The position numbers and the translations under genes were made by a program. A stretch of 10,289 bases of DNA. Source: a virus. Its lineage: Duplodnaviria; Heunggongvirae; Uroviricota; Caudoviricetes. Positions 2,768 through 9,969 of this stretch are shown piece after piece. The stretch's first letter is position 1. Every line of letters starts with the position of its first letter. The stretch lies in the IMG/VR virus record IMGVR_UViG_2740892235_000015, positions 1 through 10,289 of that record. One strand, written 5' to 3'. The notes beneath the pieces are model-generated. The model did not search any database and was not told the DNA's origin. It was given only the letters and a program-made list of their open reading frames with translations.

Positions 2768-3001
2768 ATGCGTGATGATCGTTTTTATTCCCTGAAACAA
2801 GAATTTTCCGGCGTATCTGATGATGCGGCTGATGCGCTTTCGTCAATGCCAGAACTTATTAGAGCGGCTTTTTTCTTACTTTCCACGAAAGAATATAAAT
2901 CAACGGGACTTGATGTACTGAATATCGCCGCCGATTATGCGGAATATGTGGCAGAGGCGCGTTACAGAAGAAAATTTCCTGAGGATGTAAGCCATGCGTG
3001 A
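2768..3001 (+). CDS. Hypothetical small protein (77 aa)
   Basis: ORF MRDDRFYSLKQEF... with helical, protein-like composition. A G9 homopolymer immediately upstream serves as the SD region. The stop overlaps the start of the next ORF (ATGCGTGA), suggesting translational coupling. The opposite-strand ORF 2859..3116 looks like antisense noise. Confidence 0.5.
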   Translation: MRDDRFYSLKQEFSGVSDDAADALSSMPELIRAAFFLLSTKEYKSTGLDVLNIAADYAEYVAEARYRRKFPEDVSHA

Positions 3002-3210
3002 TATTTACCACGAAACAACAGAACGCGTATTTCTTGCACTTTCTCACAGTGAAAACATGCTGGAAATATTGCGCATATGGCTTGAAACACTTGGCGACAA
3101 TGAACGCGACAAACAAAAATCAAGAATTGTCACGGCATTAATAACGCTTCTTGAGCCTGTAATAAATGAGTTGCAGGAAATAGAGACATTGCACGACAGA
3201 TATAACGAAC
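2994..3210 (+). CDS. Hypothetical small acidic protein (at least 72 aa; 3' end lost in N run)
   Basis: ORF MRDIYHETTERVFLALSHSENMLEILRIWLETLGDNERDKQK..., with GAGGA SD at 2981-2985. Net acidic and helical. Runs into the N run at 3211, so the true stop is undefined. The 292-aa extension in the ORF track is antisense to real minus-strand genes and is not credible. Confidence 0.45.
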
Positions 3211-3220
3211 NNNNNNNNNN
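3211..3220. other. Run of 10 N (unknown sequence, possible scaffold gap or masked bases)
   Basis: Directly visible in the sequence. Lies between convergent genes. Confidence 1.
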
Positions 3221-3223
3221 TAC

Positions 3224-3451
3224 TCATCCTGGCGGGCGATTCTTACGGGACTTTAGCCGCCGTGGGCAGCTTGCTAAAAATGCCTCCAACGCGAATAGTC
3301 CAGGTTTCATTTCTATCGGTATTAGTTGGATATTCAGAGGATTAGCCAGTTCGGCTTCAAGGCGAGCACAGGTTTCTAACTGCCTTTGCCGAATGATTTC
3401 ATCTTCTTGCGTATGCGTGTCTTGTATTGGTGATAGTGTGTTGTTGGTCAT
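3224..3451 (-). CDS. Hypothetical small protein (75 aa), second gene of RHH operon 2
   Basis: Minus-strand ORF starting MTNNTLSP. Start region ATGACCAA is shared with the 2067..2270 gene and embedded in the R1 element. The stop codon is reached before the N run, so the ORF is complete as shown. No recognisable domain. Confidence 0.45.
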   Translation of the reverse strand: MTNNTLSPIQDTHTQEDEIIRQRQLETCARLEAELANPLNIQLIPIEMKPGLFALEAFLASCPRRLKSRKNRPPG

Positions 3452-3504
3452 GGTACTGCCCTGTAAAGCAATGCGCCGTAGTACCTCACGCCACGGCGCT
3501 GATG
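3444..3504 (-). repeat. R1 copy b: conserved intercistronic element with stem-loop
   Basis: 45-nt core at 3460-3504 is identical to 2279-2323. TTGGTCAT at 3444-3451 is also shared. Sits between the stop of RHH gene 2 and the start of the downstream small gene. Confidence 0.85.
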
Positions 3505-3508
3505 GTGA

Positions 3509-3688
3509 TTATTCTGATTCTTTGGCCTTGCGACGCTGGCGGTATTCAACTTCCCGCTTTAATGCAGCTGTAACAAACTGCCCTGTACTTTCGCCGGGCA
3601 TTTTTACCGCCTCAACATTGTTCATAACTTCATGTGGAACCCTTGCCGCAACTGTTTGTGATTTTGCGTTTACTGCTTTTGTCGCCAT
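3509..3688 (-). CDS. Probable ribbon-helix-helix DNA-binding protein, 59 aa
   Basis: From ATG at 3688: MATKAVNAKSQTVAARVPHEVMNNVEAVKMPGESTGQFVTAALKREVEYRQRRKAKESE. RHH-like strand (TVAARVPHEV) followed by two short helices. GAGGGG SD 8 nt upstream. The ORF-track start at 3697 is a GTG. Confidence 0.6.
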   Translation of the reverse strand: MATKAVNAKSQTVAARVPHEVMNNVEAVKMPGESTGQFVTAALKREVEYRQRRKAKESE

Positions 3689-3717
3689 GTTGAGCACCCC
3701 TCATAAAAAACAAATGC

Positions 3718-3814
3718 AGTATGCAGGAAAAAAAATAAGTGTTCAACACTTGACGTGTTTAACACCTCGATTTAAATTGGTGTTCAACACCTTATTTAGG
3801 CAAGGTGTTGAAAC
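3718..3814. promoter_or_regulatory. Divergent promoter/operator region of module 2
   Basis: Rightward sigma70-like promoter: -35 TTGACG (3750-3755), 17-nt spacer, -10 TAAATT (3773-3778). Leftward: -35 TTGAAC (complement of 3741-3746), 17-nt spacer, -10 CATACT (complement of 3718-3723). Inverted-repeat motif GTGTT-N-AACAC at 3739-3749, 3755-3765 and 3780-3790, plus a half-site variant at 3805-3814, overlapping both promoters. Confidence 0.5.
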
Positions 3815-3820
3815 GACGAA

Positions 3821-3860
3821 ACCCCGCACTGTAGGAGCAGTAACGGGGCTTCTAACCAAC
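3821..3860 (+). repeat. R2 copy b: leader stem-loop plus conserved TCTAACCAAC tail
   Basis: CCCCG-c-ACTG-taggag-CAGT-aa-CGGGG (3822-3848) followed by TCTAACCAAC (3851-3860), then AGGAG SD and ATG at 3881. Both stems differ in sequence from copy a but keep the same architecture. Confidence 0.6.
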
Positions 3861-3880
3861 AACGTAAACTAGGAGCCGTT

Positions 3881-4444
3881 ATGGTTGCTGTAAATCATAT
3901 ACCACACCTTGTACACACACAAACTGCCTTTGTGTGGCGTTTTCTGGCCCTGAATATCGGAGAAAAAAACCAGTTGATCGCCAGTGTCGAAAATAGCTAT
4001 GATTCCCGCGCACCTCATAAAACGGGTGTCGGGATTAGCCTCCTGAAAACAACTGAAGCGCACAGCACGCGCCCCGCGTGTTTTTTTGTGCCGCATAGTC
4101 ACACCTTATCAATGGTGGGCTGTACGGGGGCGGAGCAATCCGCGCCGGTTTCTTCAGTGTCCGGTAAGGCTAACCCTGTACAGTCCGCCACCAGCGAAAT
4201 TAGCCTTTTGCGTGGCGGTTATCTTAACCACACTGAGGAGGCTGCCAACATGGCTACTACCCCTGCCCTCGTACATTCTCAAACAGCCTTTATCTGGCGC
4301 TTTATTGCCTTTGGCGCGTCAGACCATCAAATCATCCACGTAACCGCCTGGACGGAACGCGAAGCGCGTAACCGTTGCCCGTACGGTTGTGTTGCTGTGT
4401 TCGCCGCCCGTATTCGTCAGGGGGCGCACCATGCACAATTATGA
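3881..4444 (+). CDS. Tandem-repeat protein, possibly Ash/Icd-like (P4-associated family)
   Basis: 187 aa with an internal duplication: LVHTQTAFVWRFLAL near the N-terminus and LVHSQTAFIWRFIAF around residue 130. AGGAG SD at 3871-3875. An in-frame internal ATG at 4250 is preceded by GAGGAGG (4235-4241). Family assignment is from memory of Icd-like sequences (FxWRF and NRC motifs) and is unverified. Confidence 0.55.
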   Translation: MVAVNHIPHLVHTQTAFVWRFLALNIGEKNQLIASVENSYDSRAPHKTGVGISLLKTTEAHSTRPACFFVPHSHTLSMVGCTGAEQSAPVSSVSGKANPVQSATSEISLLRGGYLNHTEEAANMATTPALVHSQTAFIWRFIAFGASDHQIIHVTAWTEREARNRCPYGCVAVFAARIRQGAHHAQL

Positions 4445-4636: not shown

Positions 4637-4936
4637 ATGAAAAAGAAAAATTCTGGCTTTACTGCCAGTGACTTCTCTCGGCCTGAAATCCGCCCCGGCG
4701 ATATTTTCCGTGATAACTACGGCGGTACGGTAACGATTAAAGGCGTGGCAGAACGGCGCATCACCTACCGTCGTGAAGGCTACGAATATGATTGCGTGAT
4801 GCCTGTTTATCAGTTCCGGCGTGATTTTTCTCTGGTACAGACCGCGCCGCATAACGTGCCCACCTGCAGGGAGAAAGCACGCGCCAATATTCAGAAGATG
4901 AAAAACATGATTAACGGATTCAGGGGCAAGAAATGA
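4637..4936 (+). CDS. Hypothetical protein (99 aa)
   Basis: ORF with AGGAAA SD-like sequence. Its stop overlaps the start of the replication ATPase gene (ATGA), suggesting co-translation within the replication operon. Confidence 0.5.
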   Translation: MKKKNSGFTASDFSRPEIRPGDIFRDNYGGTVTIKGVAERRITYRREGYEYDCVMPVYQFRRDFSLVQTAPHNVPTCREKARANIQKMKNMINGFRGKK

Positions 4937-6330
4937 AAAGCGCACCGAACTTAAAAAAACAGCCTTACGACAAGATGACCGAAGTCATCATTTTTGCGGG
5001 TAGTGATGCGTGGGCACATGCGAAACAGTGGCAGGAACAGGACGGGCGACTGGCTGGCGATAATGTGCCTCCCATTGTGCTGGCTGATGATCAACTGGAT
5101 GAACTGGCAGACCTGAGAATCATCGACGAGGGGCGCTATTGTGTCCGGCTGTACAAGGCAGGCCACATCAGGCCATCAAATATTAATGCCATTGCGCACA
5201 AGCTGGCGGCGGCGGGCGTAACTGATGCGAATTATTACCCCGAAGGGATACACAGCCAGAAGCGGGAGAACTGGCGCGAATATCTGGAACGGGAGCGGGG
5301 GAAAAAGCCAGGGGAAGAACACCACCAGCGAAAAACCACGCTACCGATGAGCGTTGGATCTGCCGGATACGACACGCAATTAGATTACGTGGTAAAGGGG
5401 ATTATTCCGGCATCGTCGCTATGCAGCATATACGGGGCAAGCGGTTCCTATAAATCATTCCTTGCGGGTTCGTGGGCGTGTCACGTTTCCACGGGCCGCC
5501 AGTGGGGAGGCCGCAGGGTGGCGCATGGCGCTGTTCTCTATGTGGTTGGTGAAGGCGGTATCGGCGTTCCGCGTCGTGTAAAAGCCTGGGAGGTTGTGCA
5601 CGGTGAGCAGGTGAAAAATCTGTATCTGGTAAACCGTCCAGTTTTTCCGGCTGTCCCGCTTGATGTTGATGAACTGGTTATCGCTGCCCGTCAGGTGGAG
5701 CGGGAAACGGGTAAACCTGTACGCATGATTATTCTTGATACTCTGGCGCGTTGCTTTGGTGGCAATGATGAAAATGATTCCCGTGATATGGGGGCGTTTA
5801 TCCGTGGGTGTGACGAGCTTAAACGGCGCACAGGGGCCACGGTGCTGGTGGTTCACCATTCCGGCAAGGATGAGACGAAAGGCGCGCGCGGTTCCAGTGC
5901 ATTTCGTGCATCACTGGATGCTGAATACCGGATACGCAGGGAGGACGCAGGAAGCGAAGCGCTGGTTATCTCATGCACCAAAATGAAGGACGCGGAGGAA
6001 CTCAAAGAAGCCGCATATGACTTACGCGTGGTGGAGCTTTTTACCGACGCTGACGGGGAGTTAATCACGTCGCTGGTGGTGGTGGATAAGCCGCGCCCTC
6101 CCGTTGAACTGGAGCGCATCGAGGAGGCAGGCAACAAGACGGAAAACCATACCGCGCTATGGGGATGCATACGTTCACGCACACAGCACGGCGACAAGTG
6201 CACGATCCCGCTGTTACGTGACGATATGAAAAAGCTGGGGTATGACACAAAACACCTTAAACGATGGTTAGCCAAACTGGAAAAAGACGACGTGATCTAC
6301 ATTGACGGTGATGATGTAGGACCACTGTAA
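4933..6330 (+). CDS. Replication ATPase/helicase, RecA-fold (RepA/AAA_25-like) with uncharacterised N-terminal domain
   Basis: 465 aa. Walker A GASGSYKS (aa 168-175), Walker B-like RMIILDT, and a VVHHSGKDETKG motif typical of RepA-like RecA-fold helicase-ATPases. The iteron array starts immediately after the stop codon. Confidence 0.88.
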   Translation: MKSAPNLKKQPYDKMTEVIIFAGSDAWAHAKQWQEQDGRLAGDNVPPIVLADDQLDELADLRIIDEGRYCVRLYKAGHIRPSNINAIAHKLAAAGVTDANYYPEGIHSQKRENWREYLERERGKKPGEEHHQRKTTLPMSVGSAGYDTQLDYVVKGIIPASSLCSIYGASGSYKSFLAGSWACHVSTGRQWGGRRVAHGAVLYVVGEGGIGVPRRVKAWEVVHGEQVKNLYLVNRPVFPAVPLDVDELVIAARQVERETGKPVRMIILDTLARCFGGNDENDSRDMGAFIRGCDELKRRTGATVLVVHHSGKDETKGARGSSAFRASLDAEYRIRREDAGSEALVISCTKMKDAEELKEAAYDLRVVELFTDADGELITSLVVVDKPRPPVELERIEEAGNKTENHTALWGCIRSRTQHGDKCTIPLLRDDMKKLGYDTKHLKRWLAKLEKDDVIYIDGDDVGPL

Positions 6331-6532
6331 AAAGTGGGCATTAAAAGTGGGAAAGGTGGGCAATTTAACGGAATTTTAACAAAATTACCCACTTTCCCAC
6401 GTGTATATATCCCAAAAAGTGGGCACTAAAAAAATACCTATGAAACAAGATGATATAAATCCCAAATTTCCCACGTTGGACGAAGTGGGAAAACGTAAAA
6501 AGTGGGCGAAAAAAGTGGGTAGAGGTGGGCAA
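6331..6532. repeat. Iteron array, candidate origin of replication
   Basis: About ten copies of (A)AAGTGGG(C/A)A or GGTGGGCAA in both orientations: direct at 6331-6340, 6343-6354, 6354-6363, 6416-6425, 6483-6493, 6497-6508, 6511-6520, 6522-6532; inverted at 6388-6400 and 6467-6474. An AT-rich stretch lies between them (6365-6412). Confidence 0.6.
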
Positions 6533-6784
6533 ATGACTCAAAAACACAGAGACAGAACAGAGCCAAAATATAAAGCGTTAGACATGACAGAGCACGCCTT
6601 AAAGGTGGCAATCAGAACGATAGACCGCCACGCGGGGGAAGGATACGCGAAGGAACATCCCGACCTGATAAGCGCATTCATGACCACAGCAGCAGCAAAC
6701 TTTGCCACGCTGACAGAACGGGAGATTGCCGAAGCGGAACAGGTAACAACAATCAACGTTAAAACCGGAGAGGTGGAATCATGA
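6533..6784 (+). CDS. Hypothetical protein (83 aa)
   Basis: ATG at 6533 with GAGG SD at 6522-6525. Start chosen downstream of the iterons rather than the ORF-track start at 6401. Stop overlaps the SSB start (ATGA). Confidence 0.5.
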   Translation: MTQKHRDRTEPKYKALDMTEHALKVAIRTIDRHAGEGYAKEHPDLISAFMTTAAANFATLTEREIAEAEQVTTINVKTGEVES

Positions 6785-7203
6785 CAGCACAGATAGCCGC
6801 TTACGGGCGGCTGGTGGCTGACCCACAGTTAAAGACCACCAGCAAGGGTACACAAATGGCGATGGCGAGTATGGCTGTCCCCCTGCCGTGCAGCCAGGCC
6901 GATGACGGAACGGCGACGATGTGGTTATCCGTCCTGGCGTTTGGCAGACAGGCCGACGCACTGGCAAAACACCACAAAGGCGAACTGGTGAGCGTGGCGG
7001 GTAACATGCAGGTGAGCCAGTGGACAGGCCAGAACGGCGAAACGCGGCAGGGCTGGCAGGTTATCGCTGACAGCGTAATCAGTGCCAGAACGGCGCGACC
7101 AGGTGGTAAAAAAGGCCAGCAGGGCCAGGCTACTGACGCACTGAACAGGGCAAAACAACAGGCGGGTAACGATGATCCGTACGGGGATAACATACCGTTT
7201 TAA
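6781..7203 (+). CDS. ssb: Single-stranded DNA-binding protein (SSB-like)
   Basis: 140 aa. OB-fold-like core resembling SSB (AFGRQA...KGELV.V.G.MQ...WT.Q.GE.R.GW). Gly/Gln-rich linker and a C-terminal acidic tail ending DNIPF, like the DDDIPF tail of bacterial SSB. Confidence 0.75.
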   Translation: MTAQIAAYGRLVADPQLKTTSKGTQMAMASMAVPLPCSQADDGTATMWLSVLAFGRQADALAKHHKGELVSVAGNMQVSQWTGQNGETRQGWQVIADSVISARTARPGGKKGQQGQATDALNRAKQQAGNDDPYGDNIPF

Positions 7204-7669: not shown

Positions 7670-7864
7670 ATGCCAGAGAACAACACCAGAAAGCCGGATA
7701 AAAGTGCCACGGTACACATAGACGCCGGAACTATGGAGAAGATCGAACGCTATCAGCAGTTCATCAAAGATAATCACCCGGGTATGCCAGTGCCCACGAA
7801 AGGACAAATCACACGCAGCGCGGTTGAATACTGGTACAGGGCAACGTTAGGAGCCTGGCTATGA
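7670..7864 (+). CDS. Hypothetical small protein (64 aa)
   Basis: ATG at 7670 with GGAGG SD at 7658-7662. Stop overlaps the start of the protease/capsid gene (ATGA). No recognisable domain. Confidence 0.5.
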   Translation: MPENNTRKPDKSATVHIDAGTMEKIERYQQFIKDNHPGMPVPTKGQITRSAVEYWYRATLGAWL

Positions 7865-9750
7865 AAACATGGTTTTCCATTAAGGCTATGGCAGATGTTG
7901 TACATGTGCGCATTTATGACGAGATCGGCGGGTACGGTGTAAAAGCATCGGCACTTACTGACGAGATCAACGCGTGTGGTAATGCGTCTGAAATCCATCT
8001 TCGCATCCATTCACCTGGTGGCGACATCTTTGAAGGGCTGGCTATCTATAACGCTCTGAAAAATCATCCGGCAAAAAAAATCGTACACATTGAAGGCATG
8101 GCGGCTTCTATGGCGTCGTTTATTGCCATGTGTGGAGATCACATCGTTATGCCTGAAAACGCGATGATGATGATACATGCCCCCCGTGGTGTTACTGCCG
8201 GAGTGTCGGGCGACGTTCGCCGCTTTGCTGATCTGATGGACAAGCTGGGCGACACGATGGCAGAAACCTATGCCGGAAGAACGGGCAGGAGCAAACAGGA
8301 GATCACCTCAATGATGGAGGCGGAAACCTGGATGGATGGCAATGAGTGTAAGGCTAACGGCTTCGCAGATGAGGTTATACCCGCGATTACAGCAATGGCC
8401 CGAATTGAATCAAAACGAATCGGAGATTTTTCAAATATGCCGGAAAAAATTAAAAGCATGATCAGCCAGAAAACTGGCAGTGGCGAACAGGAACGACTTA
8501 ACGGAATCCGTGAATTGTTTGGCACCTTCAACGGAAGATATAACGACCTGGCTATAAGTTGTCTTGCGGATTCAGAATGTAGCGTTGAGAATGCACGCGA
8601 ACGCCTTTTACTCGCTATGGGTAAAGAATCAACGCCAACAAACAAAACCACCCCCGCAAATCTTTACTACGCGTACACGGATAACGGCAATATAACTGGC
8701 GATGCCATGCGTCAGGGGCTTAATGCGCGTCTTGGTCACGAACGGGCCGAACGCGGTAATCCTTACGCCATGATGAGTCTTTTCGATATGGCACAGGCAT
8801 CATTAACCCATCGTGGTATAAGCACGGGCAGCTACAGCACACGCTCGCAGATAGTAAACGCGGCATTCACCCACAGCAGCAGCGATTTTACAGATATCCT
8901 TGCTGGTGGCGCTGAAAAATCAGTGCTTGCAGGCTGGGAGCACAGCGGCGAAACATTCCGCCAGTGGACGAAAAAAGGTTCCCTTTCAAACTTCCGGGAA
9001 GCCCGCCGCGTTGGTATGAATGGCTTCTCAACGTTAAACAAAGTGCCGGAAGGGGCAGAATATAAATACATCACCACCAGCGATCGCGGTGAACCCATCG
9101 CGCTGGCTACTTACGGGAATATTTTCAGCATTACCCGCCAGGCGATAATCAATGATGACCTTGATCAGTTATCAACGGTGCCAATGGCTATGGGCCGTGC
9201 AGCATCAAGAACGGTGGGAAATCTGGTTAATCTGGTGCTTACAGGCAACGTAAAACTTTCTGACGGAATAACGCTGTTTGACAAAAAACACAGCAACCTG
9301 ATTGAAGCAGGACTGACAACACCGGGACTTAGTGCAGCACGTCACCTGATGCGCACACAGAAGGACAAAAATGGCGAAGTGCTGAATATTGCGCCTAAAT
9401 TCCTTTTAGTTCCGGCAGCACTGGAAGATCGCGCGTTGCAGATGATTAACTCAACCGCACCTTTCGGGGCTGATAAAAACAGCGGGATCTTTAACCCGTA
9501 CCACAAGCTACTTGATATCATCGTCGATCCCCGCCTTGATGATATCAGCGAAAAACAATGGTACATGCTTTCCGCACAGGGAACGGACACAATCGAGGTG
9601 GCTTATCTTGATGGCAATGACGAGCCTTACCTTGAACAGCAGGAAGGTTTTATCGTTGACGGCGTGGCCTGGAAAGTCCGTATTGATGCAGGTGTGGCAG
9701 CTCTGGATTATCGCGGTATGGTCAAATCAGGCGGTACCGATTCACTATGA
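7861..9750 (+). CDS. Prohead protease (ClpP-like, S14) fused to HK97-like major capsid protein
   Basis: 629 aa. The N-terminal ~190 aa match the ClpP pattern (IHSPGGDIFEGLAIYNALK ... GMAASMASFIAMCGD ... MMIHAPRGV, compare ClpP INSPGG, AASMGAF, MIHQP). The C-terminal ~300 aa resemble the HK97-fold major capsid family. A linker or scaffold-like region lies between. AGGAG SD. Confidence 0.88.
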   Translation: MKTWFSIKAMADVVHVRIYDEIGGYGVKASALTDEINACGNASEIHLRIHSPGGDIFEGLAIYNALKNHPAKKIVHIEGMAASMASFIAMCGDHIVMPENAMMMIHAPRGVTAGVSGDVRRFADLMDKLGDTMAETYAGRTGRSKQEITSMMEAETWMDGNECKANGFADEVIPAITAMARIESKRIGDFSNMPEKIKSMISQKTGSGEQERLNGIRELFGTFNGRYNDLAISCLADSECSVENARERLLLAMGKESTPTNKTTPANLYYAYTDNGNITGDAMRQGLNARLGHERAERGNPYAMMSLFDMAQASLTHRGISTGSYSTRSQIVNAAFTHSSSDFTDILAGGAEKSVLAGWEHSGETFRQWTKKGSLSNFREARRVGMNGFSTLNKVPEGAEYKYITTSDRGEPIALATYGNIFSITRQAIINDDLDQLSTVPMAMGRAASRTVGNLVNLVLTGNVKLSDGITLFDKKHSNLIEAGLTTPGLSAARHLMRTQKDKNGEVLNIAPKFLLVPAALEDRALQMINSTAPFGADKNSGIFNPYHKLLDIIVDPRLDDISEKQWYMLSAQGTDTIEVAYLDGNDEPYLEQQEGFIVDGVAWKVRIDAGVAALDYRGMVKSGGTDSL

Positions 9751-9756
9751 CAACAA

Positions 9757-9778
9757 GGCGGCACCAGCCGCCTTTTTT
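9757..9778 (+). terminator. Rho-independent terminator
   Basis: Stem GGCGGC / GCCGCC with loop ACCA, followed by T6. Lies 7 nt after the capsid gene stop. Confidence 0.7.
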
Positions 9779-9785
9779 GCGGGTC

Positions 9786-9969
9786 CTCCTGGTGGGGTGG
9801 GCCTGAACACGGGGCGGGCGGCGCGGAAAAAAGCGCATTTTTTTGATTTTATCGTCATCATCATCATGTGTATAAGTGATTGTTTTTAATTATTTTGATG
9901 TGAAAAAGATGATGAAGAAGGTTGTTTTTTGTTCGACATCTTTTAGCGTGACAGATTCTTTACAAAAAA
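9786..9969 (+). repeat. R3 copy b: duplicated intergenic control module
   Basis: GC-rich block at 9786-9850 nearly identical to 7249-7312. Shared TATAAGT (9871-9877), AGGTTGTTTTTTGTTC (9919-9934) and TTTACAAAAAA (9959-9969). Confidence 0.8.

Follow-up and report, generated by a model that had tools for sequence, protein, structure and literature searches.

A bidirectional iteron array following a RepA-family initiator gene is the probable replication origin of an Escherichia coli phage-inducible chromosomal island

The 202 bases at positions 6331-6532 of a 10,289-nucleotide stretch of viral DNA (IMG/VR record IMGVR_UViG_2740892235_000015, the whole of which is referred to here as the window) very probably act as the origin of vegetative replication in a phage-inducible chromosomal island (PICI), served by the Rep protein encoded immediately upstream; that reading is drawn from comparative sequence analysis. 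The underlying design, in which a rep gene is followed by iterons arranged around an A+T-rich centre, has been described before in SaPIs and in Gram-negative PICIs (PMC6092414, PMC9371898), and since a named PICI also carries the module, the finding correctly identifies a feature whose kind is already known. The present case differs from those studied in that its initiator is predicted to employ a RecA-fold, RepA/gp4-like motor where those use an SF3 motor.

By its gene content, the window is a PICI-type satellite island of E. coli, approximately 10 kb in length, and a sibling of the characterised island EcCICFT073. Its closest whole-window relatives, which are likewise islands of about 10 kb, are inserted at a tRNA-Pro gene between yejM and yejO, an insertion point that the supplementary tables of Fillol-Salom et al. 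2018 (PMC6092414) give for E. coli PICIs; the window itself stops short of attR, and the right end of the island is seen in the homologues only. The window encodes a tyrosine integrase (1-1242), a small helix-turn-helix protein (1739-1945) with a weak AlpA match that falls below the Pfam cutoff but whose homologue is annotated AlpA in RefSeq, an Ash-family protein (3881-4444, plus strand), a 99-residue DUF4222 protein (4637-4936, plus strand) whose gene overlaps the start of rep (ATGA), and Rep itself, a 465-residue initiator-helicase (4933-6330, plus strand, ending in TAA at 6328-6330). Downstream of the array, on the same strand, lie ORF83 (6533-6784), an 83-residue protein assigned to the replication-module family phrog_1231 (PHROG E=6e-53), a single-strand DNA-binding protein, or SSB (6781-7203; Pfam SSB E=4e-16, PHROG 44), and a 629-residue fusion of a ClpP-like prohead protease with a major capsid protein (7861-9750). 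No lysis or tail genes were found in the window, and the combination of integrase, weakly AlpA-like protein, rep and attachment site in their company is that of a PICI or SaPI. Runs of ten Ns at 2668-2677 and 3211-3220 render ORF calls that cross them (for example 1900-2718 and 2994-3872) unreliable.

Several further features of the island were recorded. Rfam matches to isrK (4010-4086, plus strand, 61.8 bits) and to the C4 antisense RNA (4108-4195, plus strand, 75.4 bits), both above their gathering scores, lie inside the Ash-family ORF at 3881-4444, and together suggest an antisense-RNA immunity region in the style of P1, P7 and P4, or an icd-type control region, within the island. The DUF4222 gene is conserved upstream of RepA-type and P4/D5-type rep genes alike; a supplementary table of Fillol-Salom et al. 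2018 (PMC6092414) gives its homologue in EcCICFT073, c1495, the label 'pri', although c1495 displayed no primase domain in the present analysis. Past the capsid gene, at 9751-9830, a terminator-like hairpin (GGCGGCACCAGCCGCC) with six Ts is followed by a G+C-rich tract containing GGTGGGGTGGG and GGGGCGGGCGGCGCGG, whose pair of GTGGG sequences stands outside any iteron-like array; by analogy with other E. coli PICIs, this tract may correspond to a packaging (cos) region.

Within 6334-6529, the core sequence GTGGG occurs 11 times, at 6334, 6347, 6356, 6419, 6485, 6502, 6515 and 6525 on the plus strand and at 6388, 6396 and 6470 on the minus strand. A preliminary description of this DNA, made from the sequence alone, had put the number of copies at about ten, in either orientation, over 200 bp, and the count of eight forward and three reverse copies (spanning 6332-6531) bears that out. 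Only 20 further cores are distributed over the remaining 10,087 bases of the window, a density at which 0.40 would be expected per 202 bp (Poisson P = 7e-13), and among 500 Markov-1 simulations of the window the maximum in any 202-bp stretch was 5. The iteron consensus with its flanks is AAAGTGGGNA (A-A-R-G-T-G-G-G-N-A), and copies in the array vary at positions 1-2 and 8 of the 9-mer; the motif originally proposed, AAGTGGG(C/A)A, is indeed enriched, with four exact matches against 0.17 expected (none of 200 shuffles reached four), but the other copies are variants of it. The first iteron, AAAGTGGGCA, starts at 6331-6332, immediately behind the rep stop codon, as the same description had it, and the array lies within the 202 bases between that stop codon and the start of the following plus-strand ORF (ATG at 6533).

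The copies are arranged as a left set of six, in the order + + + - - +, and a right set of five, in the order - + + + +. The left set opens with a direct triplet at 6332-6362 on the plus strand (AAGTGGGCA at 6332-6340, AAGTGGGAA at 6345-6353 and AGGTGGGCA at 6354-6362), its copies spaced by 13 and 9, whose positions are kept in the arrays of six genera. A short spacer of 26 bp (6362-6387, 75% A+T) connects the triplet to two inverted iterons at 6386-6402 on the minus strand (CCCAC cores at 6388-6392 and 6396-6400), and the position of the first of these (C.CACTT) is invariant in 13 aligned arrays. Between that inverted pair and the central direct iteron (AAGTGGGCA, 6417-6425, plus strand; AAGTG.G invariant in the array alignment) lies a motif that is not an iteron, TGTATATAT (6402-6410), in which the TATA columns of TGTATATA (6404-6407) are invariant in the 13 arrays, from six genera and with any type of iteron; this motif is a candidate for a first melting or start site that would be independent of Rep specificity. 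The main A+T-rich region, 46 bp in length and approximately 78% A+T (75-80% in 20-bp windows), extends near the centre of the array from 6424 to 6469, between the two iteron sets, and is presumed to be the unwinding element by its agreement with the published layout of PICI origins (PMC6092414, PMC9371898). The AT-rich stretch that had been noticed between the repeats is confirmed by this region, with a shorter one in the spacer at 6362-6387.

The right set begins with a divergent pair at 6468-6491, composed of an inverted core (6470-6474) and a direct copy (AAGTGGGAA, 6483-6491), of which the inverted member is a direct copy in arrays of the GTGAG type, and closes with a second direct triplet at 6500-6531 on the plus strand (AAGTGGGCG at 6500-6508, AAGTGGGTA at 6513-6521 and AGGTGGGCA at 6523-6531) whose copies are spaced by 13 and 10. 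The last iteron, AGAGGTGGGCAA, stops one base short of the next ATG and doubles as the Shine-Dalgarno sequence of that ORF (6520-6535), and a purine-rich copy at the same place is kept in GTGAG arrays. The array region as a whole is purine-rich on the plus strand. Its single-strand hairpin propensity is modest (z = -2.7) and is due to the inverted copies, that is, a by-product of the arrangement of the repeats. Neither a DnaA box (at up to one mismatch) nor an IHF-like site was found in 6331-6532, and window-wide counts of both are those of chance; Rfam returned no RNA family overlapping the array. An extension of ORF83 coding through the array, from a GTG at 6401, was considered and rejected, as the frame is broken or shifted in two related loci (L002 and L088) and RefSeq has the short form.

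The location of the array corresponds to that of an origin established by experiment. In EcCICFT073, rep together with the region just 3' of it maintains a plasmid, and deletion of either abolishes maintenance (PMC6092414). The order of genes in that island (L094 in the present collection) is the same as in the window: DUF4222, rep, a gap of approximately 290 bp, an ORF83 homologue and SSB; its rep product is of the P4/D5 type and goes under the name 'DNA primase family protein'. Two additional islands, L003 and L004, share with the window the integrase, attachment site, ORF83, SSB and protease-capsid gene, and carry a rep gene of the EcCICFT073 type (P4/D5) instead of the RepA type. Their post-rep regions contain 11 TCTACC/GGTAGA repeats in both orientations, with 1-2 in the remaining 11 kb, and an alignment of that of L003 with the 288 bp that follow EcCICFT073 rep shows few mismatches. 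Since sibling islands thus carry an origin of the tested type in the same place, the window array occupies the slot of an experimentally validated origin, and the rep-then-ori layout of a phage satellite, which the preliminary description had recognised, is supported by this comparison. From the same material it appears that rep and its repeats are exchanged together as a module.

The island in the window, of about 10 kb, carries the capsid fusion but neither portal nor terminase; a 15-kb capsid-forming island at another site (L001), whose rep-ori block is 98.6% identical to that of the window, carries a complete capsid-and-packaging set with its own terminase, portal and HNH genes; and EcCI11128, a named PICI at the same yejM site in which a RepA-family rep is followed by a 201-bp array with nine plus-strand and two minus-strand GTGGG cores, encodes a small terminase subunit, its capsid gene being a separate one. 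Late modules are swapped freely around a constant replication slot, and the presence of the same rep-ori block in two types of element indicates that the array follows rep and not the packaging genes.

The most serious competing explanation, although an improbable one, is that the array is a control region at which Rep binds, either in regulating the downstream genes (ORF83, SSB and capsid) or in handcuffing for copy-number control, with the true origin elsewhere. The array does separate two genes of one operon, rep and ORF83, its last iteron overlaps the ribosome-binding site of the latter, and iteron arrays in plasmids, which count in favour of such a role, serve control as well as initiation. 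However, a promoter scan of 6000-6900 returned no promoter-like site in or near the array, and a terminator scan of the same interval returned a single terminator-like hairpin, on the minus strand inside rep, and none at the array. There is also no second iteron cluster anywhere in the window that might be the real origin, the core being at background density outside 6331-6532; the A+T-rich centre and the oppositely oriented copies suit an opening site; and the equivalent slot in EcCICFT073 is needed for replication (PMC6092414). It counts against the origin reading that transcription must run through the array, which is embedded in an operon and has neither a promoter-like nor a terminator-like site around it; the array may play a dual role, in control and in initiation.

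The preliminary description had termed the rep gene a replication ATPase, which understates a gene that appears to encode a RepA-family RecA-fold helicase joined to a winged-helix DNA-binding domain. The protein consists of a variable N-terminal domain (residues ~1-136; window positions 4933-5340), a RepA-family RecA-fold ATPase core (residues 146-314; Pfam AAA_25 E=1.7e-44, PHROG 2850) and a predicted C-terminal winged helix (residues 396-465; 6118-6327, plus strand). RefSeq homologues are named 'helicase RepA family protein', and RSF1010 RepA was the only solved relative found by sequence (1g8y, E=0.0075). AAA_25 was the only domain found in Rep, with no match to D5_N, DUF5906 or Pox_D5, unlike the Reps of L003 and of the EcCICFT073 type; Pfam searches of the N-terminal 136 residues, the C-terminal 81 residues and ORF83 returned nothing usable at E-values up to 10, and NCBIfam returned, for Rep, sub-threshold RadA matches only.

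An AF2 model of residues 396-465, built from a small alignment, reached a pLDDT of 85.5 and displays an H-H-H-beta-beta topology of three helices and a beta hairpin. When the model was compared to the PDB, nearly all of the top 50 matches were winged-helix proteins (DtxR/IdeR, MepR, IclR, Z-alpha and the APC2 WHB domain), with TM-scores of approximately 0.6-0.67 and probabilities of 0.96-0.99, at E-values of 0.045-0.2 that are weak, as is to be expected of a domain only 70 residues in length. Residue 441 is located at the start of the third helix of that model, and the third helix of a winged helix is its usual recognition helix; in the window, positions 6247-6261 encode T439-K443, the start of the putative recognition helix, and the CAC at 6253-6255 specifies His441. 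A model of full-length Rep (from a 21-sequence alignment) was poor, with a pLDDT of 61.8 and PDB matches that were noise apart from Rad51/RadA-like matches for the core, and was not used for any claim about domains or hexamers.

The N-terminal domain exists in several versions, 40-57% identical to one another, on nearly identical cores, and those versions look like the products of mosaic recombination. It was modelled as alternating strands and helices and part-matches a PHROG 'DNA primase' family, with no Pfam Toprim match. Longer homologues of Rep in Xenorhabdus, Serratia and Pectobacterium display a Zn_Ribbon_Prim domain, a Toprim_3 domain and AAA_25; the window Rep has neither a zinc ribbon nor a recognisable Toprim domain, from which it would follow that priming is provided by the host.

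The specific association of Rep with the array, which had been anticipated when the repeats were first described as probable binding sites of the upstream initiator, is supported by co-variation between the iterons and the predicted C-terminal winged helix. Rep alleles in E. coli are mosaics of an N-terminal part (~1-136), an ATPase core and a C-terminal part (~396-465), and loci were chosen for alleles in which those parts are differently combined, with cores counted in the post-rep region of each. Alleles with the helix TKHLKRW, MKHFRRW or VKHFRRW (the window, L001, L086, L088, L090, L093, L096, L097 and L098) are followed only or overwhelmingly by GTGGG, and those with (V/M)KN(M/F)xRW (L002, L005, L087, L089, L092 and L099) only by GTGAG, and this pairing holds for any N-terminus (40-100% identity to that of the window) and any core (70-100%). 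The N-terminal domain was considered as the reader and rejected: L005 and L089 possess a window-like N-terminus (88% identity) yet have GTGAG arrays, and L086 and L088, with N-termini only 41-45% identical, yet have GTGGG. ORF83 was likewise rejected, because nearly identical versions of it follow GTGGG, GTGAG and TCTACC arrays. Neither the Rep N-terminus nor the helicase core co-varied with the iteron sequence, and the same was true of the downstream ORF and of the packaging genes.

The same correspondence extends across the family. In a set of 88 loci from genomes of Enterobacterales species and from E. coli, which are phylogenetically non-independent samples, 77 had at least four cores of one type, and in all 77 the pair of residues preceding [F/L/M]xRW predicts the iteron core, with none discordant: KH occurs with GTGGG (15/15), as does KK (25/25), KN occurs with GTGAG (29/29), and KS (7/7) and KG (1/1) occur with GTGCG. 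The other 11 loci displayed fewer than four cores after rep, some having a disrupted rep and some a variant repeat that was missed by the counting.

A minimal pair of loci narrows the association, within E. coli, to one position, residue 441 (His or Asn). The last 70 residues of the L097 and L087 Reps are identical except for H441N (with 17 differences in the last 213 nucleotides), and the array of the former is of GTGGG and that of the latter of GTGAG, each with six plus-strand and two minus-strand copies. The arrays are colinear: the positions of the copies are kept, and the fourth base of the core is changed in nearly all of them at once, which points to a single trans-acting reader. Because under 100 bp separates the C-terminal codons from the array, part of the co-variation could reflect genetic linkage; the concerted change of copies, together with a C-terminus that is otherwise kept, would nevertheless be difficult to account for if the two were functionally unconnected. 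Of the Rep protein, only the 70 C-terminal residues appear to travel with the origin, with a single His/Asn position tracking G or A in the iterons. In L087, the post-rep region is 410 bp in length (2899-3308 of that locus) and contains, past the normal array, a second core consisting of an inverted iteron, GCGTATATAT and a direct iteron, which may represent a partial duplication of the origin.

These observations also bear on the possibility that the repeats are a packaging signal (cos or pac, bound by a small terminase) or operators for AlpA, Ash or PerC, and not sites for Rep at all, a possibility that is very improbable. Terminase and repressor sites can take the form of clustered short repeats, and several small regulators are encoded in the window. 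Against this, an identical array accompanies quite different packaging genes in L001 and in the window, the array is present with different upstream regulators, the same packaging and regulatory genes are accompanied by a different repeat when the Rep is of another type, and the single H441N change in Rep tracks the sequence of the repeats. That the cluster is a functionless product of chance or low complexity in an A-rich intergenic region can be practically dismissed, for although the plus strand there is purine-rich, the Poisson probability and the simulations given above speak against it, and it is refuted by the conservation of the architecture, copy by copy, in six genera with the specificity base changing in concert.

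If the array is the origin, we infer the binding, melting, self-loading, helicase activity, host priming and exact opening site as follows. A helper phage would turn on the rightward operon of the island, leading to production of Rep, a RepA-family hexameric helicase of RecA fold whose C-terminal winged helix would bind the 11 AAAGTGGGNA iterons, with His441 at the start of the recognition helix reading the fourth base (G) of GTGGG. Clustered Rep would then open either the A+T-rich DNA or TGTATATAT between the oppositely oriented central iterons and load itself as the replicative helicase; the SSB of the island, from a gene 250 bp downstream, would coat the single strands, and host primase and polymerase would complete synthesis. 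The narrower proposal that Rep is an SF4-like self-loading initiator that independently came to resemble that of SaPIs, and that residue 441 sets the specificity of the origin (His or Lys for G, Asn for A), has about an even chance of being correct. In the literature searched, no functional test of a RepA-type PICI origin and no statement of the His/Asn-to-G/A rule were found, and a search with the iteron sequence returned nothing relevant.

The module is widely distributed. Of 5,426 complete E. coli genomes, 554 contain at least 80% of the rep-ori block, in nearly every case chromosomally, and the phage collection contained no near match to 4900-6800, which indicates that the module belongs to chromosomal islands rather than to phages. 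Matches to RepA-type islands occur at up to 12 places in one E. coli genome. In Xenorhabdus bakwenae (L017, L019 and L082), three RepA-type islands are found on one chromosome, all with the same KN helix and GTGAGGA iterons, so that co-resident islands do not need different origin specificities.

The assignment places the origin of a very common satellite replicon of E. coli, and should aid the annotation of PICIs and capsid-forming PICIs as well as the design of probes for their induction. Were the recognition rule to hold, the family would be a compact natural example of the diversification of an initiator-origin pair and a source of orthogonal replicons for engineering, with natural orthogonality, founded on a rule of one residue and one base, among PICI Reps that are otherwise interchangeable. 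The general picture of PICI replication is unchanged.

The window differs from the classical iteron plasmids, whose origins contain direct iterons of 17-22 bp and DnaA boxes and whose Rep_3 initiator acts with DnaB that is loaded by DnaA/DnaC; the repeats here are 9-10 bp in length and lie in both orientations, no DnaA box accompanies them, and the initiator is not of the Rep_3 family. The RecA-fold hexameric helicase core is shared with RepA of RSF1010 and the IncQ plasmids. In IncQ plasmids RepC reads the iterons and RepB' primes, whereas in the window Rep the putative DNA-reading domain is fused to the helicase. T7 gp4 has the same order of zinc ribbon, Toprim and helicase domains as the longer homologues of Rep, which, unlike gp4, possess an extra C-terminal winged helix and adjoin an iteron array; in the window Rep, the zinc ribbon and any recognisable Toprim domain were either lost or never there. 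The alpha protein of satellite P4 is similarly a satellite initiator in which a helicase is joined to a C-terminal DNA-binding domain that acts with short repeats in both orientations, but alpha is a primase with an SF3 helicase, and the window Rep has no primase domain. P4 requires two separated clusters of repeats, ori and crr, in cis, and the window has a single cluster.

In SaPIs and PICIs, 6-12 short iterons with penta- or hexanucleotide cores directly follow rep, divided equally by an A+T-rich centre and oriented in opposite directions on either side of it (PMC9371898), and SaPI Rep is a self-loading helicase whose C-terminal winged helix reads the iterons (Qiao et al. 2022, PMC9371898). 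The array of the window is likewise 3' of its initiator gene, with 11 copies of a short iteron of 9-10 nucleotides in its consensus, arranged as two sets, each of mixed orientation, to the left and right of an A+T-rich region, and its initiator is predicted, from the model and from co-variation at residue 441, to be a helicase with a C-terminal winged helix. The window Rep has no SF3 motor of the kind that unites SaPI Rep, P4 alpha and the EcCICFT073 Pri-Rep: the motor of SaPI Rep is SF3 AAA+, that of the window Rep is AAA_25/RepA with a RecA fold, and the SaPI host is Gram-positive. The resemblance to SaPIs is therefore one of function and architecture, and does not extend to a homologous motor. 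The pri-rep-ori region of EcCICFT073 belongs to the same family of islands, with the same gene order, the same slot, and iterons 3' of rep around an A+T-rich region; it differs in that its Rep is a 584-residue primase-helicase of the P4/D5 type (SF3) that acts with TCTACC iterons in 288 bp, where the window pairs a 465-residue RecA-fold helicase of the RepA type with AAAGTGGGNA iterons in 202 bp.
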